A DNA stretch of 24,313 bases, from the IMG/VR virus record IMGVR_UViG_3300045988_065523, positions 1 to 24,313 of that record; one strand, given 5' to 3'. The stretch is from a virus. This document shows, piece by piece, positions 70-23,748 of this stretch. The notes below the pieces were generated by a model. The model was not told where the DNA came from and did not search any database. It saw only the letters and a list, made by a program, of their open reading frames with translations. The position numbers and the translations under genes are program-made. The first letter of the stretch is position 1. Each line of letters begins with the position of its first letter.

Positions 70-726
70 TTATATTTTATTTAAAATTATACTTATCTGT
101 ATTCCAGCTCTTCTTAGATGTACTCAAGTATCATAAGGCATAGGTGTATCACAGAATGACAAACCTAAAACGCCAATATCTTTATCCTCAGTCTTTAAAT
201 AAAATACTGCTATTTCATTCACTCTGTTGGATTTAAATGCATAATATAATCTTGGATCATCTGCTTCTAAACTATCTATATTACCAAACCATCCATCATT
301 CTTAGAAAACTCTATAATTGAAGTATAGTCAGATAACAGGAAATCTTTATAATGGCTACTTACAGATCTTATTCCTGGTTTTACTTCCTCTGCATTCATT
401 ACTCCATAAGTAAATGGAAGTCCTCCTAATCCAGTAGTTCCATTATGATATTCAATAACCCAAGCTCTATCAGCATTGGTACTTTGAAGCAATTCTTTAA
501 GCTTATATTTAATCTTTAAAGTTGCTTCATTTCTTGCAATAGTTTTAGAATTGTGAGTTTGTTCAATATAGGTTACAACCTTATTATAAACAATAGATGG
601 ATTAAGTGTAATAACCATTACATAGGATATAAATATTAATCCAATCCCTGCTTTAAATATCTTTAGTAATCCATATTTATCTACTCATTCTAATACCTTT
701 CCAAACCAGTTTAATTTATTTTCCAT
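70..726 (-). CDS. hypothetical membrane-anchored protein (code-4 model, 218 aa)
   Basis: ATG at 726..724 overlaps the TAA of the upstream gene (TAATG). The N-terminus MENKLNWFGKVLE-W-VDKYGLLKIFKAGIGLIFISYVMVITL contains a hydrophobic helix. An in-frame TGA lies at 685-687. It joins in frame to track ORF 124..618. That ORF's 'stop' at 124-126 is TGA, so under code 4 it continues for 18 codons (WVHLRRAGIQISIILNKI) to TAA at 70-72. Confidence 0.5.
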
Positions 727-1310
727 TACATATTATACTTAAAGGTATATCCTTTAGTTTGTTTTTGTCTGCCACTTAAAACTGAAGATATTAAAGAAGA
801 AGTTATGTTTAACTCTCTTGCTGCTGATCTTATACTTTTATAAGATTTTATAAATCTTCCATCTAAAGTGTATTGACTAATAGCTTTAGTTCCATAGTTT
901 TGATTTTTCTTGCGTATTAATTCCTTAGTTTCTTCTGAATGATGCTTCCCATAAAATGGATTTTTATTTCCTATTCTAGTTTTAGCAAATTCAGAAATAA
1001 TAACTTTAGTTTCATTAGAAACTATAGGATGATTACTTGTGTCAGTTCTATTATAACCAAATCTTAAATCTGTAGTATTATAATAGCTAAAGAAGTATTT
1101 TTCAAGATATTTCATTTCCGATTCACTATTTACATAATAAATAGTATGTTTAATATTGTTTCAACCGTACTTTTTAATTGGTCTGTAAACAAATTGATCT
1201 TTATATCCTTCTCCACCTCTTCATCTACTATTTACTGACTGAGTGGTTAATCCAACATATCTTTTACCATTTGGAAAAGTATGAATATAAACTACATACT
1301 GTCTTGACAT
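726..1310 (-). CDS. GIY-YIG homing endonuclease (GIY-YIG + NUMOD3-like + C-terminal HTH), 194 aa, two sense TGAs
   Basis: Hand translation from ATG 1310 gives MSRQYVVYIHTFPNGKRYVGLTTQSVNSR-W-RGGEGYKDQFVYRPIKKYG-W-NNIKHTIYYVNSESE, continuing in frame into track ORF 726..1115. TGAs lie at 1221-1223 and 1161-1163, at the conserved 'RW' and 'YGW' positions of this family. The C-terminus has GKHHSEETKELIRKK and the pattern SIRSAARELNI..S.IS.VLSG....TKGYTFKY. Confidence 0.85.
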
Positions 1311-1718: not shown

Positions 1719-2417
1719 TTACTTACTCTTTTTATTGTTATCACTTGAAGGGAAATCATAAGCTCTTTGCAGAGGACCTTCACAAGAATTATATCTCCAA
1801 CCTTTACCTCTTGCTCCACCAAGCCAAATATTGCAAGATGAGCTAGAATAAAGATTGGGAAACATATCCTTTAATGGCTTATATGTATAAAGCTCAGGGA
1901 ATTCATTATAATATGTAATTATAAAGTCCTGTAAACGAGTCTTAAAGAAATCCGCCTTATCTCTATAATACTTCTTAATTTGATTTACTTGACTTGCTTC
2001 AGCAGCAATATCTTTCTCATCATCAGTTCTCATAACTCCAAAATTACCAAGCTTATAAGATATAGGAATTACTATCTCACTAAGTACTTGATAAAGTAAA
2101 TAAGGCTGAACATAATAGTCTAATAGCTCTTTATATCTGTAGTTATCAGAATCATCAATAGAATCACTTGGAAGTGGCTCAGGAGGCTCTATTGGATGAA
2201 CTGGGGTATGAGGATCAATCCAATTAATACATTTCTTTTGTAATGCTTCCAATAGCTTAGTACCAATAGTTGACTGAAGCTCTACATCTTGAGCCAACTT
2301 AATTGCTGATTGAAGATACTTGCCAGAAACATTATTATCTAAGTTAGATTCAGATTTGATGTAATCTTCACTAATTAGAAGTACATTTCTAAAATCCATT
2401 TGTTCCATATTATTCAA
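1719..2417 (-). CDS. hypothetical structural protein downstream of portal (232 aa)
   Basis: Intact ORF ending in TAA. Possible starts are 2417 or the ATG at 2408, just after the portal stop. Its position next to the portal suggests a head-completion or adaptor role, but I recognise no motif. Confidence 0.5.
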   Translation of the reverse strand: MNNMEQMDFRNVLLISEDYIKSESNLDNNVSGKYLQSAIKLAQDVELQSTIGTKLLEALQKKCINWIDPHTPVHPIEPPEPLPSDSIDDSDNYRYKELLDYYVQPYLLYQVLSEIVIPISYKLGNFGVMRTDDEKDIAAEASQVNQIKKYYRDKADFFKTRLQDFIITYYNEFPELYTYKPLKDMFPNLYSSSSCNIWLGGARGKGWRYNSCEGPLQRAYDFPSSDNNKKSK

Positions 2418-3492
2418 CTATTTTAGAATCAGCTGTATCTAAGCTAAATGGTGTAATTGTGATAGAATTCTTCATACCAAAGATTTTGTCAAATGTATCA
2501 CAAATCTCTTTTTGCATAGGTTTAATCATCGTTCTATTATATAGTTTAAATGATGAATTAAACTCTTGCTCATTAAATCCAGTAGAATCAGAGTTTATTC
2601 CAAATAAGTTAGGATTAGCTCTAAATGCGCAGAATATCTGTTCTCTTGTCCTATCAGATAAAGCACTATATTTCTCATCAAAATCATCAGAGTCTAAACG
2701 CTCAATAGTAGTCTTATTTGTTTCATCATCATTATATGAAATAAGAACTCTACCAGCATTTTGAAATCCTGAGAATTTCTCATTGATATTCATCTCAATC
2801 TCTTCTTTAACTTCGTCTGTAGGCTGCCCATTATTAAAATTAATAATAAGATTGCCCATAAATCCATTATGAAGAGAATTTAGATGGAACTCATTAATAT
2901 TCTTCTCAGTTTCGCAAGATAGGATAGCTGCACCATAAACAGGGACTGGATATACCTTTCTTGTTATATAGCCCTTATTATAAACAACACTTGTAGGATT
3001 ATCGTCTGAATAATTAAATTTTGGATATTTGATAGCTTTAATAGACCAAGCAGACCAATCATCGGCATAATAGAATACTTCATTCTTTTCATCAGAACGA
3101 ATCTTCATAAAGTCAAGATGATAGATCTCTGAAACTCTACCTAACATATCTCTAATTATTTGTAAAGCATATCCTCCAAAAATCATCTTATCTTTAGATA
3201 CTTTACGCATAATATCCATAATAGTCTCACCTTTCTTATTTACAGTTATTTCAAATCCTGGTGCATTACATACAACATCATTACCAACAATAAAGTCAGC
3301 AGTACCATTAATGATAGATTGAAGAGTAGCTACATTTAAATATAAATCCCATAAATATACAGGATAGCGATTATCTTCACCCCAAGAAATATAGTCCTTA
3401 CCTCTAACTTTACCTTCTACTGGCAATACGATGTTTGATACAATTACTGGATCAATTGCACTTAATTGTACTTTTGTTTTATTTTCGCTCAT
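2410..3492 (-). CDS. phage portal protein (about 360 aa)
   Basis: Track ORF 2410..3549. The likely start is MSENKTKVQLS at 3492, overlapping the upstream stop by 14 nt. Size and sequence character are portal-like (e.g. ...FNEQEFNSSFKLYNRTMIKPMQKEICDTFDKIFG). All 4 Trp are TGG, with no TGA. Confidence 0.7.
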   Translation of the reverse strand: MSENKTKVQLSAIDPVIVSNIVLPVEGKVRGKDYISWGEDNRYPVYLWDLYLNVATLQSIINGTADFIVGNDVVCNAPGFEITVNKKGETIMDIMRKVSKDKMIFGGYALQIIRDMLGRVSEIYHLDFMKIRSDEKNEVFYYADDWSAWSIKAIKYPKFNYSDDNPTSVVYNKGYITRKVYPVPVYGAAILSCETEKNINEFHLNSLHNGFMGNLIINFNNGQPTDEVKEEIEMNINEKFSGFQNAGRVLISYNDDETNKTTIERLDSDDFDEKYSALSDRTREQIFCAFRANPNLFGINSDSTGFNEQEFNSSFKLYNRTMIKPMQKEICDTFDKIFGMKNSITITPFSLDTADSKIVE

Positions 3493-9520: not shown

Positions 9521-10045
9521 TTAAGCACCTACAACACTTTGGATAGCTTCTGCACTCAACTCATAAGGATATGATTCAGAGTCAGTAGCTAAAGTCAGCG
9601 TATAAGCATTCTGATCACCTTTTGCAGTACCAGTAACACCCGTACCAGCGGAAGCGCTTACATATTCATCTTTTCCTAAGAACCAATATTTGCCATTAGA
9701 ATCTTCTACAACAACTACAAGTTGTCCAATAGAAAGAGCAGCAATCTCGATTCTTTTCTTAGTCTCCATCTTTGTAAATACAAGAGCAAGCTCATTACTT
9801 ACATAGTTGGTTCCTGCAGTTTCGTCAACGTTCAATGTTGAGGTTAGAGAACCAGTACCTTTGCGGAATTGGTAATTATACCATTTAGCATCTTCTTCAA
9901 GAGTAATAGCTGAGATTTGATTAGTCTCATCATCTACAGTTACACTCTTAACGTTATCGTACTGAGTAATCCATACCTGTTTGATACCACCAAGCGAAGA
10001 TTCGCAATCCAGGGTAATACCAGCGATAGTTATTAAACAAGCCAT
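9521..10045 (-). CDS. putative major tail (tube) protein (174 aa)
   Basis: Intact ORF directly after the capsid gene, followed by a strong terminator. Its size and beta-rich pattern (...QFRKGTGSLTSTL...LALVFTKME...LVVVVEDSNGKYWFLGKD...) look like a tail tube protein. GC is relatively high and there is no TGA. Confidence 0.55.
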   Translation of the reverse strand: MACLITIAGITLDCESSLGGIKQVWITQYDNVKSVTVDDETNQISAITLEEDAKWYNYQFRKGTGSLTSTLNVDETAGTNYVSNELALVFTKMETKKRIEIAALSIGQLVVVVEDSNGKYWFLGKDEYVSASAGTGVTGTAKGDQNAYTLTLATDSESYPYELSAEAIQSVVGA

Positions 10046-11011: not shown

Positions 11012-11614
11012 TTAACCAATAAAGTTTTTAAGCTTTTTATCAATAACAGGATTACCAGTCATTATTGAAGCTTTGCCTTCTATCTGTTCCTCAGCTGAAA
11101 ATGCAGCACTCATTTTGCTCATCTTTTCAACCGTCTTTTCTGTAGCTTCAGATTTACCCTCTAATTCAGCTACTTTCTTAACAAGCTTATCAACAATGTC
11201 ATAAAGCTCATTAATTTCGCGATGAATTGCATCAATTGCATCAGTTACAGTTTCTTTGTAACCATCAGTAGCTACTTCAGGATCAACTGGCTCTTCAGCA
11301 GTTTCTACCTTGCGTTTTCCACAAGCAGCATCAACTTCTGCTTTAGCTGCTTCTTCTGGATCAACCTCAGCTTTAGGATCAGTTACAGACTCTACTTTAC
11401 CGTCTTTAACAACAATTGTCTTTCCATCCTCAGTTACATACTCACCATCCTCAGCAGGTTTGTATTCTCCGTTCTCATCCTGAACATACACATCCATACC
11501 AGCGCGTAAGTCTTCATCTGAATCCCAAGTAAGTACACCACTTGATGTCTTTAGATCCGTAAAATTAGACAGCATTCTCGCTAACTCCAATTTAATTTTA
11601 GTGAATTTACTCAT
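11012..11614 (-). CDS. scaffolding protein (200 aa, acidic, coiled-coil)
   Basis: Highly acidic and Lys-rich, with low-complexity helical sequence (EVDPEEAAKAEVDAA..., INELYDIVDKLVKKVAELEGKSEATEKTVEKM). It lies immediately upstream of the capsid gene. Confidence 0.7.
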   Translation of the reverse strand: MSKFTKIKLELARMLSNFTDLKTSSGVLTWDSDEDLRAGMDVYVQDENGEYKPAEDGEYVTEDGKTIVVKDGKVESVTDPKAEVDPEEAAKAEVDAACGKRKVETAEEPVDPEVATDGYKETVTDAIDAIHREINELYDIVDKLVKKVAELEGKSEATEKTVEKMSKMSAAFSAEEQIEGKASIMTGNPVIDKKLKNFIG

Positions 11615-12209
11615 ACTTAAATTTAAAATTTTTATGATAGTTTTGTTTACCTTTGCAACATCTTATAATAGCACTATGATCAAATTTATCCTCTCGTTCA
11701 GCATCCATCGAAGAATCCCAAGTTTTTATATAAACATCATTCAAATCTGTTTGAATTATACGTTTACTTACTTTTTGCCTGGATTCTTTACTCTGTACAG
11801 AACCTAAACGTACTAATCTAAGCTTATCTTTTGTTTCATCGCTTATAATCCTTCCTCTCTGTTTTGCAGACATTTTATTTCTAGATTCGATTGTATGAAT
11901 CTGTCCTTTATTGCCTCCTCCACCTAATGTAAGATTATAACCATTTGAATAAGTATCAAATAATTTAATATATCTCATTTCTGCTTCATCCAGTTTTGTT
12001 CTTAGTAATTCAGCTGTTGAACAGCAAAATACTTGCAGAATATCCCATTTAAAGGAATCAAAACCATAATACTGAATTGCATTATGAAATTTATCATTCT
12101 TAGTTCTGTACTTATGTTCTTTTTGTCTGCGACTAAAATCATTAGTCTGCCCAACATATTTTGCACCATTAGTTTGATTGGTTGCTAAGTATATACATCC
12201 ACTATACAT
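11607..12209 (-). CDS. GIY-YIG homing endonuclease (GIY-YIG + 3 NUMOD3-like repeats + C-terminal DNA-binding motif), 200 aa
   Basis: Motifs present: CIYLATNQTNGAKYVGQT...RRQKEHK...AIQYYGFDSFKWDIL...NGYNLTLGG, then HTIESRNKMSAKQRG, SDETKDKLRLVRLG and SKESRQKVSKR, ending ...CCKGKQNYHKNFKFKY. It is inserted between the protease and the scaffold. Its stop overlaps the scaffold ATG by 8 nt. It is preceded by AAGAGGTTA-ATG, one of the few SD-like sequences in the window. Confidence 0.85.
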   Translation of the reverse strand: MYSGCIYLATNQTNGAKYVGQTNDFSRRQKEHKYRTKNDKFHNAIQYYGFDSFKWDILQVFCCSTAELLRTKLDEAEMRYIKLFDTYSNGYNLTLGGGGNKGQIHTIESRNKMSAKQRGRIISDETKDKLRLVRLGSVQSKESRQKVSKRIIQTDLNDVYIKTWDSSMDAEREDKFDHSAIIRCCKGKQNYHKNFKFKYE

Positions 12210-12925: not shown

Positions 12926-15616
12926 CTAGAATGAAGCATTAGATTCAGTAACTGCTACCTTAGTTTGAGCTGAAGTAATGTCAGATTCAACAACATAACA
13001 CTTAACAGGTTCGTTTAAAAGGTCAGTTTCTTTATCTCCTAATAGGTTGCGAGTATATTCAACAGGAGCTGTATTTAAAGCAGCTGGTGCTGCCACTGCT
13101 GCAGATGCTCCACTCACTCCACTTGCACCTGATTCATCTACTTCTCAAATCTTTTTAACATTTGCAATACCTGCAACTACTGCAGCTGCAGCCGCAGCAA
13201 TACCTAAAGCAGGACCTACAATAGGAATTCCTGCCATAGCAGAGTATGCGCTATTTGCTGCACTATATGTATCAATTAAAGCTTGAGCTGTTGCAAATCC
13301 TTTACCTACTTTACTTTCCTCTCCTCATATAGTTGCCATACTTCCTGCAACACTAGATGCTACTGATAAAGTACCTTGTAAAGCCTGTTGTCTTGCTTGT
13401 TGTAAGTGTTGATAAGCCTGAGTATTAGCTTGTTCGTTTTTAATTTCAGCATCAGACAAAGCTCTCTTATTCTCATCAAGAATTCGCTCTATTTCAAGCC
13501 TTCTATCTGCAGATAATTGCTCATTAGAAAGTTGCTCATTTAACAATTCATTCTCTTGTAAAATACGCTCTCTAGTCAGTCTTAACAGTTCATTATTATA
13601 CTCAGTTTGCGCCTTATATTGATTATTTAAATCATCTCTGCTTTGGTAAGTAAACTTATAACCTGTTCCATTATAGTCTCCCGCCAAACCGAATGCCTTA
13701 GATGCTCCTTGAGTATAAGTAGTTTGGAATGTCTGTTCTACTGGCTCTCTAAGATTACTTGTTGAGGATAAATCTCTGATTCTTTTTAACTCAGCCTGGA
13801 AATCATTCCAAGCTTTATCTGCAGCACTTTTTCTTGCATTTTCTTCATCTTCTCTAGCCTTATCTCTAATTTTCTTCAGCTCTTCTTGATGCCAAGCTTC
13901 TACCTCTTCAATTCCCCTATTATACTTAATAGCTAATGCTAATAGTCTAATATATTCATCTTCAAGTTCGTCTACGGGATTTTTGGCATTTAGTCTATTC
14001 TGTAACCATACATCAAACTCGTTTATTTCTTCTTTAGCCTGTGTAGTGTTATTTTTAATGACTTCTATATCAAAAAATCCTCCGTATTTCTTATTAAGCT
14101 CAGCCACATCTTCAAACATCTTTCTAAGTCTTTCTTCTATTTCTCTGTTTAAGTCTGAAAGCTCATTATAAGTGTTTTCTTTGTTTTGCTTAGTATATTC
14201 GTATATCTGACCTTGATAGTCCTTCCAAAACATTGCGGTGGCTTTAAAAGCCTGCCAAGCAGATGCCTCTCCAAAATTAGTATCTTCTATCTTATGTTCA
14301 AGCTCAGAACGTTTATTTAAATACTCTTCGTAGATTTTAATTGCTTGCTCCTCTATAGCCTGAGCTTTAGCTCTTGCTGTTAAAGCAGCTACATAATTTC
14401 CAGTATTATTAATAAATGCATCCTCTGCTTGAGCTACAGTGTTAATATTTAAGCCAGTCTCTTTAATCTTATCTGCATATTTATTAAGGAACTCTTGTTT
14501 AGCATCTGCTGAATCTCCAACCCTCTCATATGCTATCTGAAGCTCTTTAAATATAGCAATAGACTTAGAAGAAATTTGATTAGTAGCATCAGTGATAGAT
14601 TTTCTAAATTCTTCTTGCTCTTTAGCAGCTGTTCTTATAGAAGATACATAATCTATTACCTTATTAATAGCTAATCCAATAGCTGTAGCTAAAGCTATCC
14701 ATACTGTTACATTACCAATAGTTTTAAGAGCTGTAGTTGCTTTTGAAAATGCTGTAGTTGCCTTAGCAGCTTGTGAAGTCCCATCTGCCAGCCCTTTCGC
14801 AGCATCTGCTTGTTTATTCAATGCTGCTGCAATTGCTGGAGAATTCCTTTTTAATCTCTCTAACTCTTCACTGGTGACTTTCATACTGTTAGCAGAATTC
14901 TTAACAGTATCATTAAATTTGCCAACTATGGGAATGGTATTAGAGACACTTTTATTAGTAGAATTTATTTCCTCAGGAGTGCCCATTACTCCTTGAATCA
15001 TACCTACTTTAAAATTAATATTGGCTCCCTCTAAATCTTTTACAACTTTAGAAATATTTCCCAATTCAGTACCAACATTTCCAACAGAAGTGCCAATATT
15101 ATTTAGTTTAGCGGCATCAATCTGATTAAGATTTTTGGCAGCATTATTCAACCCTGTATTAAATGGAGAGATAAAATCAGTTAATTTCTTAAACCAATTA
15201 CCTAAAGTAGGCAATTCTTCTAATAAATCTTTTATACCTCCCACACCTTGAACTAAAGCAATAGTAGATTGTAACTTAACCATTACTTTATTTAAATCTT
15301 CTGATTCTTTCCCAAATAAAGTAATAGCAGCAGTTGCAGCACCATATCCACTGGCCAACCCAGTGGATATTTTAGCTACACTTTCAAATCTTTGAGCAGT
15401 AGTTCTCGAAGATCTTGCTATCTGCTCATTAATCTTATTGAACTCTGATTGTCTTTTACCTAGTAATGCAAGAGTTTCATTATATTCCTTAGTACCAATC
15501 TCTAAATCATTCAGAGAACTAGATAACGCATCAATATCCTTCTTTAAAGAGTTTATTGACTTATTACTTGACTTAGTATCAATACTAATAACCTTTTTAA
15601 TTTCTGTTTGTGCCAT
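12926..15616 (-). CDS. tape measure protein, 896 aa, two sense TGAs
   Basis: Track ORF 13325..15616 (long and coiled-coil-rich) continues in frame: ...GSMATI-W-GEESKVGKGFATAQALIDTYSAANSAYSAMAGIPIVGPALGIAAAAAAVVAGIANVKKI-W-EVDESGASG, then into track ORF 12926..13117. TGAs lie at 13325-13327 and 13145-13147. The Gly/Ala-rich hydrophobic segment is typical of tape-measure proteins. It ends in TAG. Confidence 0.75.
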
Positions 15617-20673: not shown

Positions 20674-21162
20674 TTAAAAGTCTTTAAATAAATAATAATC
20701 TACTTGTCCTTGTAAGTCTTTAGTTATAGCATCATCAAGAAGTTCCATATAATTGTTCTCTATATATTCTATAGTATTAGTAAGTGGATGTTTTCCTTGA
20801 GTTCCTTGAAGATGTATCTTTCTTCCAATTAAATATGCAAGTTGATCTACAGTAGGTAACTTGCCATTATAAGGTCTTGGAATTACTGGCTTAGTTTTAA
20901 TCCAACTCTTTATATCAGATAATGGAGGAAATTTACCAGCAGCTCTGCCTTCTTCAACATATTCTCAATAATCTAATAAGCTAAAATTAACCTCATAGTC
21001 TCCATCCTGAGTCTCAACTATATAGTTTAAACTATTACCTAATGCTCCAGTGTCATCAGATCTGGTTTTAACTAATTCCTGTCTATAAAGAGAAATTATA
21101 AGATCTCCTCACTTTCTTAATAGCTCACTTAAATTTGAGAACTTTAATTCTTGAATATTCAT
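20674..21162 (-). CDS. small virion protein, possibly HK97 gp10-like (162 aa), two sense TGAs
   Basis: It is absent from the standard-code track. The sequence reads MNIQELKFSNLSELLRK-W-GDLIISLYRQEL...NFSLLDY-W-EYVEEGRAAGKFPP...DYYLFKDF*. TGAs lie at 21109-21111 and 20965-20967. The 'YWEYVEEGR' motif resembles the ..VE.G motif of gp10-type tail-completion proteins. This is a weak assignment. Confidence 0.6.
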
Positions 21163-21190
21163 TTTTATTAAAATATATTATTTTATATAT
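21163..21190 (-). promoter_or_regulatory. conserved A/T leader (AAAATAATATATTTTAATAAAA-ATG) upstream of the tail operon
   Basis: It is nearly identical to the leader at 23993..24020 (AAAATAATATATTTTAAATAAAA-ATG). The core TATATTTTA lies 6-7 nt from the ATG. It comes after a terminator hairpin, so it is a candidate promoter or initiation signal. Confidence 0.35.
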
Positions 21191-21195
21191 TAGTA

Positions 21196-21225
21196 GCTAA
21201 TGAAAATAGGGAGGTGTACTCCCTA
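21196..21225 (-). terminator. GC-stem hairpin / terminator between the chaperone-like gene and the tail operon
   Basis: UAGGGAG-UACAC-CUCCCUA (stem 21207-21213 / 21219-21225), followed on the minus strand by UUUUCAUU. There is also a T-run on the plus side, so it could work in both directions. Confidence 0.6.
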
Positions 21226-21231
21226 TTTTAT

Positions 21232-21282
21232 ATGTAACTTTTTTATATTATCTTAGTACCAAATATGAGTAAAAAGGTTACA
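21232..21282 (-). repeat. 51-nt hairpin-forming element, copy B (opposite orientation to copy A)
   Basis: The plus strand reads ATGTAACTTTTTTATATTATCTTAGTACCAAATATGAGTAAAAAGGTTACA. Its reverse complement CTGTAACCTTTTTACTCATATTTGGTACT...AAAAAAGTTACA aligns with copy A's plus strand. It starts 1 nt after the TAA (21284-21286) of the -1 frame extension. Confidence 0.75.
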
Positions 21283-21283
21283 G

Positions 21284-21601
21284 TTAATGTTTTCTTTTTC
21301 ATTCTTCAATCTGTCTATTTTCTTCATTAGCTTTATCTATAACATAGCATATAAGATTCAGGAACTCTTTAATCTGCATATCATATATCTGATGCCAATT
21401 AAATCTGGTAACTTCACTCACCTTATCTATTCAGATAATTCAGCTTCATTTTTGAGTAAAAGGATTAATCGTCTCGTCTGTATTAAGCTCTTCAGAAGTT
21501 TCCTCCTTTCCAGTTTGTCCCTGGTTTTCCTTAGTCTCTTCTTCATCTCCCTTTCCGAAGAGTGTAGGGTACTCAGCGTTGATACTTGCAATAAGTTTAC
21601 A
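21284..21601 (-). CDS. -1 frame extension of the chaperone-like gene (105 codons, four sense TGAs), giving a putative G/GT-type fusion of about 260 aa
   Basis: Every codon from 21601 down was translated: CKLIASINAEYPTLFGKGDEEETKENQGQTGKEETSEELNTDETINPFTQK-W-S-W-II-W-IDKVSEVTRFNWHQIYDMQIKEFLNLICYVIDKANEENRQIEE-W-KRKH*. There is no TAA or TAG for 105 codons. TGAs lie at 21446-48, 21440-42, 21431-33 and 21299-301. Confidence 0.6.
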
Positions 21602-22068
21602 AAAAAAAACATTATGTCTGAAAATATATCTATTGTTAGATGAGTATTTAAGAATTCTGCCTCATCAATAGGGTCATAATCTTCTCCATACTTCTTTCCA
21701 TTAGGTAGTAAGAAACAAGCTGCTAGATTAGGCATAAAATCATCATACTGCTTATAAAAATTCTGAAAGTCAATATATTGACTGGCCGTCATCTTATTAA
21801 CATTAAAAAAGACTTTATATTCTTTATTACCAATATTATAAGTAGTTTCTGGGGTTTTTGGCTTATATGGGGTCTCTATAAATTTAAGATTATTTATAAA
21901 TTCTTGTAGCTTGTTTACTTCCATATTAGTTATATCTTCTATAGGTATATCACTAAGTACAGATACCATAGCTAAATTCATATCTAATTCATTTTCCCAG
22001 TCTTTTCGTATTATCTCAAACAGTCTTTTATAATGAGATAAATCCATTTCATTCCAATTCTTTATCAT
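21427..22068 (-). CDS. tail assembly chaperone-like protein, 0-frame product (213 aa)
   Basis: Its ATG overlaps the TerL TAA (TAATG). The N-terminal 155 aa look like a real globular protein (...YNIGNKEYKVFFNVNKMTASQYIDFQNFYK...LLPNGKKYGEDYDP...). After the T9 run the 0-frame tail is low-complexity and basic (VNLLQVSTLSTLHSSEREMKKRLRKTRDKLERRKLL...). It ends in TAG. Confidence 0.6.
   Translation of the reverse strand: MIKNWNEMDLSHYKRLFEIIRKDWENELDMNLAMVSVLSDIPIEDITNMEVNKLQEFINNLKFIETPYKPKTPETTYNIGNKEYKVFFNVNKMTASQYIDFQNFYKQYDDFMPNLAACFLLPNGKKYGEDYDPIDEAEFLNTHLTIDIFSDIMFFFVNLLQVSTLSTLHSSEREMKKRLRKTRDKLERRKLLKSLIQTRRLILLLKNEAELSE
21601..21609 (-). promoter_or_regulatory. T9 (U UUU UUU) slippery run: candidate -1 ribosomal frameshift or transcriptional slippage site
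   Basis: The minus strand reads ATG TTT TTT TTT GTA (A9 on the plus strand at 21601-21609). The heptamer U_UUU_UUU is in the X_XXY_YYZ register of the 0 frame. The -1 frame opens immediately with TGT AAA CTT... Confidence 0.55.
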
Positions 22069-23351
22069 TATTTAATTGCAATATTATAAGTTCCTTTATT
22101 TGTATTTAAAGCATCATAAGCTAACATTAAAGATATACAAGTATCATCATTAAAGCCAGATGGAGCATTATATGATACATTTCCAGTCTTTGGATTATAA
22201 CTGGCTTCATATAGTCTTAATTCATTTAATAGTTTATCATCCTTTAAAATACCAATCTTTTCGTTTTCTAATGCAGCTTGTAGCTTATTTACAATAGCTG
22301 CTTTAGACTTATTAGTAGTTAAAAACTTAACTATCCGTAATTTAGGATTCCTTTTTACAAGAATATCATAAAACACTGAACCTATTGAGTTTTGTTCGAC
22401 TTGAACTATCTTTATAAATCCCTGATACTCAGTAAATATATTTGTCAGTAAATCAACTTGTTCTGTTGGAGTTTTGTCGTTAAAATACTTTATAAAGACC
22501 ATCTGCCCATTTTCATTTAAAGCTGTAATACAAGTATAGTCTTTACCAGAACCAGTAGCCCAGTCAACTCCAATATAAAGATTATGATATTCAGGTTTTT
22601 TATCAATTATGCAGTTAGATATATTATTAAAGAGACAACCATCATCATCTGCAAACTCCCCAAGATATTCAGTTCTAAATTTATTTTTGGAGGTTGTAAG
22701 GCGATACATTTCAAGTTTATCCTCACTCAATAGCACAGAGGTATCTTCTAATGCTCAATCAAAGGATTGATAATATTTGCTAAAATTGCCATCAAAGCCT
22801 TTTTTAAAGCATTCATAAAAGAATCCTTCTCTAAACCTTGGAGTACTAATTATAAGTATTGGAGCATTCCATACATCAGTGGTAGGCTTAATAATTTCAA
22901 ATACTTCATCTTTAAGATAAGCTGCCTCATCAAGTACTAATAATCCACTAACGGAGAATCCTCGTAATGAATCCATTTGTTCCCCAGATCTAAATAGTAT
23001 AGAACTGCCATTATTAAACTCTAATTCTAATAAGGTTTCATTCTTTCTCCTTAATATATCAGAGTCTATAACAGCTTGTACGAGTTCTTTAAATACCTTT
23101 CTAGATTGTCCAAGAGTTGGTTCAACTATACAATTAACACTCCCAGGATAATTTATAGCGAATCTCAATAATTCATTTTCTGCTAAGAATGATTTACCTA
23201 CCTGTCTCTTTGCTTTAATTGTAAAGATTTTACCAGACCTATATGAGTCATTCATAGCAGTATGTACCTTTAATTGATAGATAAATGGGCTATATCCTTT
23301 ATATATTTTTGTCATTGTTAATTGGATCTCCAAATTTAAACTGGACTTCAT
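22068..23351 (-). CDS. terL: terminase large subunit, 427 aa, one sense TGA
   Basis: Track ORFs 22755..23351 and 22068..22736 are in frame: ...KYYQSFD-W-ALEDTSVLLSEDKLEMYRL... TGA lies at 22755-22757, and the listed 'M' at 22736 is GTG Val. Motifs: Walker A AKRQVGKS, Walker B LLVLDEAAY, and nuclease motifs IGVDWATGSG and GFNDDTCISL. An alternative start is ATG 23315 (MTKIYKGY). Confidence 0.9.
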
Positions 23352-23748
23352 TATTCTGAATAGCTACAATAGTCTCAGGTTGATTTAATCCAAACATACT
23401 ATTTATAGTCTTAATAATCTCATTTGCAGCTCTAATATCTCCCTTACTAATAGCAGTATCCAGTAATGATTCCAATCTTGATAATTGTATATGTCTAAGA
23501 TTTTTTATAAGGTTATCATTCTTTTCAGCAATTATCTTATAAGCTTCTCCAATATATCTTGCAGCTGTTGATTGGCTTACATTATATTTACTTTGGAGTT
23601 CTTCACTTACTTTATTCCTTGACCATCCTTTGTTAAATAACCTTGCAGCATAAAGATATTTAGTCTTTACTTCGTCTATTTGTTCCTTTTCTACCTCTGC
23701 CTTTTTCGGTCTCCCTACTTTCTTCTTTATTTGCTCCTTCATCCTCAA
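23299..23748 (-). CDS. terS: terminase small subunit-like DNA-binding protein (147-149 aa)
   Basis: It lies immediately upstream of TerL. It has a basic N-terminus KKKVGRPKK and an HTH-like segment NKGWSRNKVSEELQSKYNVSQSTAARYIGEAYK. The track start at 23748 is TTG; the first ATG is at 23742. Confidence 0.65.
   Translation of the reverse strand: MRMKEQIKKKVGRPKKAEVEKEQIDEVKTKYLYAARLFNKGWSRNKVSEELQSKYNVSQSTAARYIGEAYKIIAEKNDNLIKNLRHIQLSRLESLLDTAISKGDIRAANEIIKTINSMFGLNQPETIVAIQNNEVQFKFGDPINNDKNI

Follow-up and report, generated by a model that had tools for sequence, protein, structure and literature searches.

A conserved T-run in the gene next to the phage large terminase gene is predicted to give two protein isoforms by programmed recoding

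Introduction

The ability of a phage to draw two proteins with a common N-terminus from a single gene is best known from lambda, in which gpG and the longer gpGT arise by -1 ribosomal frameshifting on the slippery sequence G GGA AAG. This gene lies between the tail-tube and tape-measure genes, and its slippery heptamer is close to the stop codon of the short product. Phage P2 has a comparable pair, gpE and gpE+E' (Phage_TAC_7), made at the slip site T TTT TTG from a gene located between FII (tube) and T (tape measure). Here we describe a gene, called X below, that directly follows the gene for the large terminase subunit (TerL) in the IMG/VR record IMGVR_UViG_3300045988_065523 and that contains a run of nine T's (T9). 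The DNA analyzed, referred to throughout as the window, comprises positions 1 to 24,313 of that record (24,313 nt) and carries all of its genes on the minus strand. A preliminary description of the window had proposed that a -1 change of frame at the T-run provides X with a short and a long product, as in the tail assembly chaperones of the lambda G/GT type.

Frames can also be changed during transcription. Bacterial RNA polymerase slips efficiently on runs of nine A or T, and its RNA:DNA hybrid is 9-10 bp long (PMC5009743). Both routes are represented amongst dnaX genes: Escherichia coli dnaX uses a ribosomal -1 shift on A AAA AAG, Thermus thermophilus dnaX uses RNA-polymerase slippage on a nine-nucleotide homopolymer that matches the length of the hybrid, and dnaX homologues appear to employ either a long run or an in-register heptamer (PMC5009743). 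In mxiE of Shigella flexneri, transcriptional slippage leads to a product that continues in an overlapping frame (PMC5009743).

Gene X resembles these systems in some respects and departs from each in others. As with lambda G/GT, one gene in a long-tailed phage with a tape measure would give a short product and a longer -1 product with a shared N-terminus, relatives that have diverged widely keep the frame change, and the two C-termini plausibly bind different partners. Unlike the lambda gene, X lies next to the TerL gene; its shift occurs 58 codons before the short stop, with both arms conserved, whereas the lambda shift occurs near the stop; and its slippery element is a T9 tract where lambda has a heptamer. 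It shares with P2 a slip site at which a T-run precedes G, together with a C-terminal domain in the -1 frame that is small and helical, yet it differs from P2 E in position and its proteins are twice as long. The tract has the same length as the homopolymer of T. thermophilus dnaX, and the division of the relatives of X into clusters with T9 and clusters with T6 or T7 is analogous to that amongst dnaX homologues. In dnaX, however, the shifted frames end quickly and give a truncated product, whereas in X, for which we infer slippage, the shifted frame specifies a conserved extra domain. As in mxiE, slippage would extend the product of X into an overlapping frame. The mxiE tract is also a run of nine T; mxiE differs from X in being a bacterial regulator rather than a gene of a phage structural module, and in having no conserved, ordered alternative tail in the 0 frame.

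Results

Downstream of the TerL gene, whose stop codon overlaps the start ATG of X by one base (TAATG), the minus strand reads ATG (21612-21610) TTT TTT TTT GTA, through 21598, in the 0 frame of X. The T9 at 21609..21601 (U9 in the mRNA) corresponds to the A9 at positions 21601-21609 of the plus strand, and the protein around it reads ...DIM FFF VNLL... in the 0 frame. The coordinates of the run given in the preliminary description, including the in-register U_UUU_UUU heptamer, were confirmed. The short form is composed of an N-terminal domain (N-domain, residues 1-156) and a basic tail of 57 amino acids. The -1 frame, entered at the last T (21601), reads CKLIASINAEYPTLFGKGDEEE...PFTQKWSWIIWIDKVSEVTRFNWHQIYDMQIKEFLNLICYVIDKANEENRQIEEWKRKH and, if TGA is counted as a sense codon, stays free of stops for 105 codons up to the TAA at 21284, as had been described. 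A long form encoded by 22068..21601 joined to 21601..21284 would contain 261 amino acids. The features of the locus and its surroundings are collected in Table 1.

Table 1. Features of the X locus and of the genes and elements around it in the window
Feature	Positions	Strand	Description	Basis
Short-isoform coding sequence (0 frame)	21427..22068	minus	213 amino acids; TAG stop 21429-21427	translation
Shift tract T9	21601..21609	minus	codons F154-F156; in-register heptamer U_UUU_UUU at 21607..21601	
-1-frame extension of the predicted long isoform	21284..21601	minus	105 codons + TAA 21286-21284	
Dual-coding overlap	21430..21600	minus	57-58 codons, read in both frames	
Conserved C-terminal domain of the predicted long isoform, PFTQKWSWIIWIDKVSEVTRFNWHQIYDMQIKEFLNLICYVIDKANEENRQIEEWKRKH	21287..21463	minus	small, helical	alignment and model of relative P0142
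Three -1-frame TGA codons (21448-46, 21442-40, 21433-31)	21431..21448	minus	coincide with 0-frame GAA (Glu)	
TerL, large terminase subunit	22068..23351	minus	427 amino acids; one in-frame TGA	Terminase_6N 4.5e-11, Terminase_6C 1.9e-6
Tape-measure-like protein (orf9)	12926..15616	minus	896 amino acids	five PHROG tape-measure families
Terminator-like hairpin AAAATAGGGAG-TACAC-CTCCCTATTTT	21203..21229	minus	tentative	RNAfold

Within the window, the longest off-frame stretch free of TAA and TAG on the coding strand is the one found here (138 codons, followed by 93 and 87), and the T9 tract is the sole run of A or T of at least eight nucleotides in the 24 kb. Matches to the 8-mers A8 and T8 number two, both inside the tract, compared with 7.6 +/- 4.0 in dinucleotide shuffles. 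The deciding evidence for a change of frame is, nevertheless, comparative conservation rather than the length of the open -1 frame.

To assemble relatives of X we scanned viral contigs twice and GTDB genomes once, which together provided 97 loci in 33 clusters (~60% N-domain identity) and 22 loci in genomes or metagenome-assembled genomes. These relatives range from 100% to ~25% identity in the N-domain and from 27 to 66% GC. The run and an open -1 frame are kept in every relative examined; this had been named in the preliminary description as a check on the proposal, and it holds across the 33 clusters. The -1 open reading frame (ORF) extends for 92-118 codons in nearly every locus bearing the run, the exceptions being losses at contig ends, three TGA-recoded loci cut by the stop-codon setting and the partial Bacteroides matches L154 and L156. 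Three diverged relatives carry, in their DNA, an identical ATG TTT TTT TTT G followed by a -1 frame that is exactly 105 codons long and whose protein sequence is conserved, and in standard-code relatives the -1 ORF is free of TGA and ends ...EWIRTH-TGA. By cluster, the run is T9 in 26/33, T7 in 5/33, T6 in 2/33 and T8 in 0/33, with T10 present as minority variants only. T9 occurs in genomes of 29-66% GC and down to ~25% identity, and it persists even in those of 57-66% GC, where Phe codons are counted as 90 TTT vs 228 TTC. Most of the loci from metagenome-assembled genomes were assigned to Bacteroidales (Alistipes, Rikenellaceae, Bacteroides), and several were in Clostridia-class bins.

The short product is likewise conserved. 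A search with the fused sequence of both frames retrieved 87 proteins, nearly all of them the 0-frame product of 206-213 amino acids, on several hundred contigs. Because diverged homologues, at 55-67% identity, keep the 0-frame tail, this tail is a real protein segment. A profile of the N-domain recovered 2,134 proteins at 90% clustering and 2,903 clusters at 50% identity (E <=1e-3). The 2,903 clusters align to the profile through about position 205, the 0-frame tail included; FF occurs at about residue 155 in 146 of the top 149 family representatives, and the members found by the profile carry no Pfam domain or name. A profile of the extension retrieved only small, separately called ORFs (34, none named or with a Pfam domain). 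Searches of INPHARED by megablast and tblastn with the window DNA, the N-domain, a long-form relative and the C-domain consensus gave no match. A cultured relative is available in Nonlabens (Persicivirga) phage P12024S, a relationship detected by fold similarity only, in which the TerL gene is followed by a gene for 175 amino acids with T9 at 23578 whose -1 frame enters ORF 39 (MEGFSLKWSWY...), annotated separately in GenBank. On this comparative evidence, which supports the earlier proposal of a -1 change at the T-run giving a short and a long product with a shared N-terminus, we are confident that the programmed recoding predicted here is real and conserved.

Selection acts on both frames. 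Nucleotide divergence at 0-frame codon positions 1, 2 and 3 upstream of the run is 0.338, 0.145 and 0.441; beyond the 0-frame stop, divergence at positions 1, 2 and 3 of the -1 frame is 0.171, 0.092 and 0.362. The latter pattern is a clear coding signature, and nowhere in the gene is conservation higher than in the stretch beyond the 0-frame stop. Amino-acid identity in the -1 and 0 frames is, respectively, 0.54 and 0.55 in the 5' third of the overlap, 0.32 and 0.46 in the linker, 0.67 and 0.48 at the 3' end of the overlap, and 0.75 and 0.49 in the extension. The -1-frame protein is kept from the run onward (IN..YP.LFG), and the invariant residues of its C-domain are W, D, VSE, R, W, EF, Y and K. 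In the overlap, the 0 frame encodes a basic helical hairpin while the -1 frame encodes a short helix, an acidic disordered linker and the start of the C-domain; one purine-rich sequence thus codes for a basic helix in one frame and for an acidic linker in another.

Reading the long form requires that TGA be translated, and across the window TGA is a sense codon: TerL and the ORFs of 534, 1149 and 896 amino acids are whole only when TGA is read through. The extension contains four TGAs, the number reported earlier, at 21448-46, 21442-40, 21433-31 and 21301-299, such that the long isoform would have four TGAs in its 105 extension codons; the short isoform has none. In the family alignment, the TGA at codon 54 of the extension aligns with an invariant Trp, and those at codons 52 and 101 align with Trp in at least 90% of sequences; these columns lie in the motifs KW.W and EEWKR. 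The same columns are TGG in the relatives L023, L026-28 and L086, in which the 0 frame has Gly instead of Glu, and standard-code relatives carry an invariant KWGW at the columns of the window TGAs. Because TGA and TGG interchange at conserved Trp columns while the 0 frame flips between Glu and Gly, TGA is Trp and not Gly, and the -1 frame is the one on which selection acts at that point. Recoding loosens the dual-coding constraint, as Trp encoded by TGA lets the 0 frame read Glu; with TGA as Trp, a switch between Gly and Glu in the 0 frame costs the -1 frame nothing. Neither a suppressor tRNA nor a tRNA of any kind was found in the window.

Two side observations concern the same codons. In standard-code relatives, the 0-frame tail has a conserved 'G.G' close to its end that is apparently a by-product of W.W in the -1 frame (TGG read as GGx in the 0 frame). 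In addition, the in-frame TGA of TerL (22755 region) causes standard-code gene calling to split TerL into a Terminase_6N piece and a Terminase_6C piece (L004 1785..2999).

The short form of the window was predicted by AlphaFold2 with a mean predicted local distance difference test score (pLDDT) of 89.9. The model has an alpha/beta N-domain and then a helical hairpin, with tail helices at residues 146-181 (running straight through FFF) and 185-211. The preliminary description was correct that the 0 frame continues to the TAG at 21427; its view of this tail as low-complexity sequence did not hold, as the tail is conserved and predicted to be an ordered helical hairpin. The long form was modeled on the relative P0142, a natural T10-type protein from a clade of 57% GC that is 34% identical to the long form of the window. 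This model (mean pLDDT 87.4, predicted template modeling score 0.79) has the same N-domain as the short form, followed by an acidic linker at residues 173-190 that is disordered (pLDDT <50) and C-domain helices at 193-250 with block-mean pLDDT of 89-96.

A fold search of the viral structure database BFVD returned mostly uncharacterized Caudovirales proteins, some of them of 243-260 amino acids and spanning both domains. Three such uncharacterized proteins (A0A516L5A8, A0A516L611 and A0A6J7WJY4; 243-260 amino acids) match the long-form model over its full length with template modeling (TM) scores of 0.76-0.81, and some lineages may, judging from these predicted folds, encode the long form as a single ORF. 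An arrangement of another kind is present in P0113 (157 amino acids, from a single ENA contig of 1099 nt), in which the basic tail of the 0 frame runs in frame into the C-terminal domain, ...MVRIRQGGDEFSRKWGWIANVD..., which suggests a second indel or a different fusion.

Could the two frames reflect something other than recoding? An error or mutation in the homopolymer, such that X is in truth a single T10 ORF of 261 amino acids or a recently frameshifted pseudogene, had been raised in the preliminary description, and a few T10-type records do exist: P0001 and P0121, the only two such proteins amongst the 87 of the fused-sequence search, and L046 and P0142 (on 6 contigs) in the clade of 57% GC. 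In each of these two clades the T10 variants that fuse both frames are minorities, and they are possibly assembly errors or real tract-length polymorphism. The T9-type product, in contrast, is found on several hundred contigs from independent assemblies against two T10 in the clade of the window, T9 recurs in 26 diverged clusters and in the genome of an isolate phage, and the 0-frame tail is both conserved and, by prediction, ordered, which a single-ORF gene would not maintain; we therefore reject this explanation, whose probability we consider negligible. It is also very improbable, if marginally less so, that 21426..21284 is a small separate gene with its own start and that the open -1 overlap is incidental. 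Gene callers do call the -1 ORF as separate proteins of 60-120 amino acids, and ORF 39 of Nonlabens phage P12024S is such a case in GenBank. However, there is no conserved start codon (relatives have GTA, GTT or GTC where the window has GTG), the first ATG is likewise variable and is preceded by the invariant motif W.W..D.VSE.TR..W, the -1 frame is conserved as protein directly from the run, and this frame is free of stops in nearly every lineage with the run, genomes of 66% GC included. A chance ORF was rejected as well, the run and the -1 frame being conserved and the latter bearing a coding signature.

We envisage the expression of X as follows. Standard decoding would give the 213-amino-acid protein, consisting of the 156-residue N-domain and the basic helical hairpin, and a shift to the -1 frame on U9 would give a protein of 261 amino acids with the N-domain, the acidic disordered linker and a Trp-rich helical domain of 55 amino acids, a long arm that would be completed only with TGA read as Trp. 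In the favored route, bacterial RNA polymerase would slip on the nine-T tract and add one U to a fraction of the transcripts, and ordinary translation of the U10 transcripts would yield the long form. A second, possibly minor route would be -1 slippage of the ribosome on the in-register U_UUU_UUU, and in relatives with only T6 or T7 it would be the only plausible one.

The choice between RNA polymerase and ribosome turns on the lengths and registers of the runs. T9 occurs in phase 0 in 11 clusters, phase 1 in 2 and phase 2 in 13, while all five T7 clusters are T_TTT_TTT in register and both T6 clusters are T_TTT_TTC in register; the third frame stops within 1-7 codons in 14/15 lineage representatives checked. 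The presence of T9 in all three registers, and never of T8, favors polymerase slippage, since the need for a heptamer alone would predict that T7 and T8 are common. The nine-T tract also matches the length of the RNA:DNA hybrid, and a run of this length is expected to make bacterial RNA polymerase slip in any case (PMC5009743). Genomes with T10, if real, would be tolerated under polymerase slippage, with both products still made, and would not be under ribosomal -1 frameshifting. No conserved RNA structure, whether hairpin or pseudoknot, was identified near the tract, either in 13 representatives of the lineages, in 37 additional loci or in an alignment of 9 sequences: the sole consensus helix, a 6-bp hairpin ~40 nt downstream of the tract, shows no covariation and has a folding energy of -4 kcal/mol, and the mean folding z-score is ~0 for T9 loci. 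Likewise, no upstream Shine-Dalgarno-like motif was seen by eye in representative sequences, no formal motif scan having been made. Stimulatory elements, which on the 3' side take the form of a hairpin or pseudoknot 5-9 nt downstream, are not obligatory for -1 ribosomal frameshifting.

The rival reading is that the shift is purely or mainly ribosomal, on U_UUU_UUU, as in lambda G/GT and P2 E/E+E', with the two extra T's being incidental, due to the conserved Phe-Phe, or merely raising efficiency. Several observations count for it and against polymerase slippage. Every T9, including that of the window, contains an in-register U_UUU_UUU, so purely ribosomal slippage also fits the T9 loci. All 7 of the 7 T6 and T7 clusters are exactly in register, which by chance would have a probability of ~(1/3)^7 were register random, and one of them, L089 (T7), is closely related to the T9 loci L088 and L097; since these shorter runs are all in register, the ribosomal heptamer alone appears sufficient for the family. 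The annotated -1 site of P2 E/E+E', on GGTTTTTTG, is itself a T6 run followed by G. On the comparative pattern, RNA-polymerase slippage, which the preliminary description had listed as an alternative, is at least as likely as the ribosomal mechanism: we rate it as an even prospect or slightly better that polymerase slippage is the main route in T9 members such as the window, and regard a purely or mainly ribosomal shift as a serious contender of somewhat less than even probability.

Whether X specifies a tail assembly chaperone, as had been proposed, is a separate question, and here the proposal stands only in part: a short and long pair by a -1 change is supported, whereas the position, overlap, homology and fold of X are unlike those of known chaperones. 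The phage has a tape-measure gene and no G/GT-like pair adjoining it; the ORF lists show no small ORF pair beside the tape measure, although no search for other frameshift sites in the window was made. The pair X/X' is thus a candidate chaperone by elimination, given a tape measure and no other pair, and by analogy. By that analogy, the gene works like G/GT at the level of gene expression, and the two isoforms may act like gpG and gpGT as a chaperone made at a fixed ratio, with C-termini that contact, for example, the tape measure and the tube; we consider this to fall just short of an even chance. The tape-measure-like protein (PHROG 2854 at 1.6e-7, with 9483, 1506, 167 and 3336) would then be the presumed client. 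The combined explanation that we consider best, that X is a two-product phage morphogenesis gene using programmed recoding, with polymerase slippage as the main route in the window and a chaperone-like role, is in our judgment evenly balanced.

A number of points weigh against this explanation and its chaperone component. The case that one gene gives two isoforms, predicted at 213 and 261 amino acids, is built on comparative evidence. The structure of the long form is a model of P0142, 34% identical, and not of the window protein. X adjoins the TerL gene, ~6 kb from the tape measure, and does not lie between tube and tape-measure genes. Finally, searches of Pfam, PHROG, PDB sequences and PDB structures (Foldseek), together with hhalign, found nothing significantly similar to a known chaperone in sequence or fold. 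In these searches the short and long forms of the window had no Pfam match (E up to 1) and no PHROG match (E up to 0.01). Amongst 46 diverse members, two had sub-threshold matches to Phage_TAC_7 in N-terminal helices (17.5 and 13.4 bits; Pfam cutoff 25), and 3/46 matched PHROG 166, 'tail protein'. Profiles of both parts found nothing in the PDB sequence search, and the best Foldseek E-values against PDB were 2.1 for the long-form model and 1.4 for the short form, neither of them significant. The sole named chaperone in BFVD, from Arthrobacter phage Kitkat, matched with an E-value of 0.038 and a TM score of 0.37. Alignment by hhalign of the family profile to P2 gpE+E' and lambda gpT gave short motif matches only, none of them significant; that to lambda gpT spans 23 residues (E 0.049, probability 1%). 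We treat the motif concerned, W..[IVF][YW].M..[IL].E[FL], as a lead and not as homology.

The surroundings of X are conserved with it. The same TerL-X synteny is seen in relatives, including distant ones, and the order TerL, X, neck, large, large, tape measure, protease, capsid is kept in the relative L133 (57% GC) and in Nonlabens phage P12024S. In the window X is followed by a gp10-like neck gene, and an XkdF-type protease, a portal and a major capsid protein were also identified; the genes flanking the tape measure encode the 1149-amino-acid protein and the protease. The gene order of the window as a whole is unusual: TerS-like, TerL, X/X', neck, the 534- and 1149-amino-acid proteins, tape measure and XkdF protease come first, then scaffold-like, capsid, tube-like (candidate tube gene at 10045..9521) and fibers, followed by the portal (3492..2410).

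Between the long-form stop and the start of the next gene at 21162 lies the tentative terminator-like hairpin of Table 1, followed by T's; the 56-nt stretch that holds it (21245..21190) folds at -15.7 kcal/mol in RNAfold, and a scan for consensus terminators did not flag the hairpin after X. The terminase gene and X/X' may form a transcription unit of their own. The spacer to the next gene is 264 nt in the window vs ~150 nt in L001 and L006. Within the structural module there are two genes of homing-endonuclease type on the minus strand, one at 12209..11607 between the protease and scaffold-like genes (GIY-YIG and NUMOD3) and one at 1310..726 (NUMOD1, NUMOD3 and an I-HmuI NUMOD-like domain).

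Discussion

Genes with two isoforms made by recoding are already known; what is new in X is the very large family, the genomic position, the T9 tract and the unusual length of an overlap in which both frames are functional. In the searchable literature we found no report of this frameshift, of T9 in phage genes or of chaperone frameshifts in Bacteroides phages, and the database records examined contain no annotation of a frameshift. Current pipelines truncate the gene or call two unrelated ORFs, and databases thus lack the long isoform, with the most conserved domain of the gene, for thousands of phages from gut and marine environments.

More tentatively, and as a generalization that we think rather unlikely to hold in full, X may represent a large unannotated family of ~2,900 clusters, found here mostly in phages and prophages of Bacteroidota, that would produce two isoforms beside the terminase by polymerase slippage on T9 or by ribosomal slippage on T6 or T7 depending on the lineage, with the isoform ratio tied to recoding. 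If true, this family would mirror the dnaX dichotomy in phages and would include, to our knowledge, the first pair of tail-chaperone type made by transcriptional slippage. Completion of the long form in the TGA-recoded clade would have to wait until TGA is read as Trp, and the isoform ratio would in this way depend on the state of recoding during infection.

Should the pair prove to be a tail assembly chaperone, this would supply the missing one for a group of phages whose sampled members map mainly to Bacteroidota, and the logic of G/GT would have survived the movement of the gene away from the tape measure. The split between T9 and in-register T6 or T7 provides a natural test of transcriptional versus translational slippage, and in Nonlabens phage P12024S a cultured relative is at hand for experiments.

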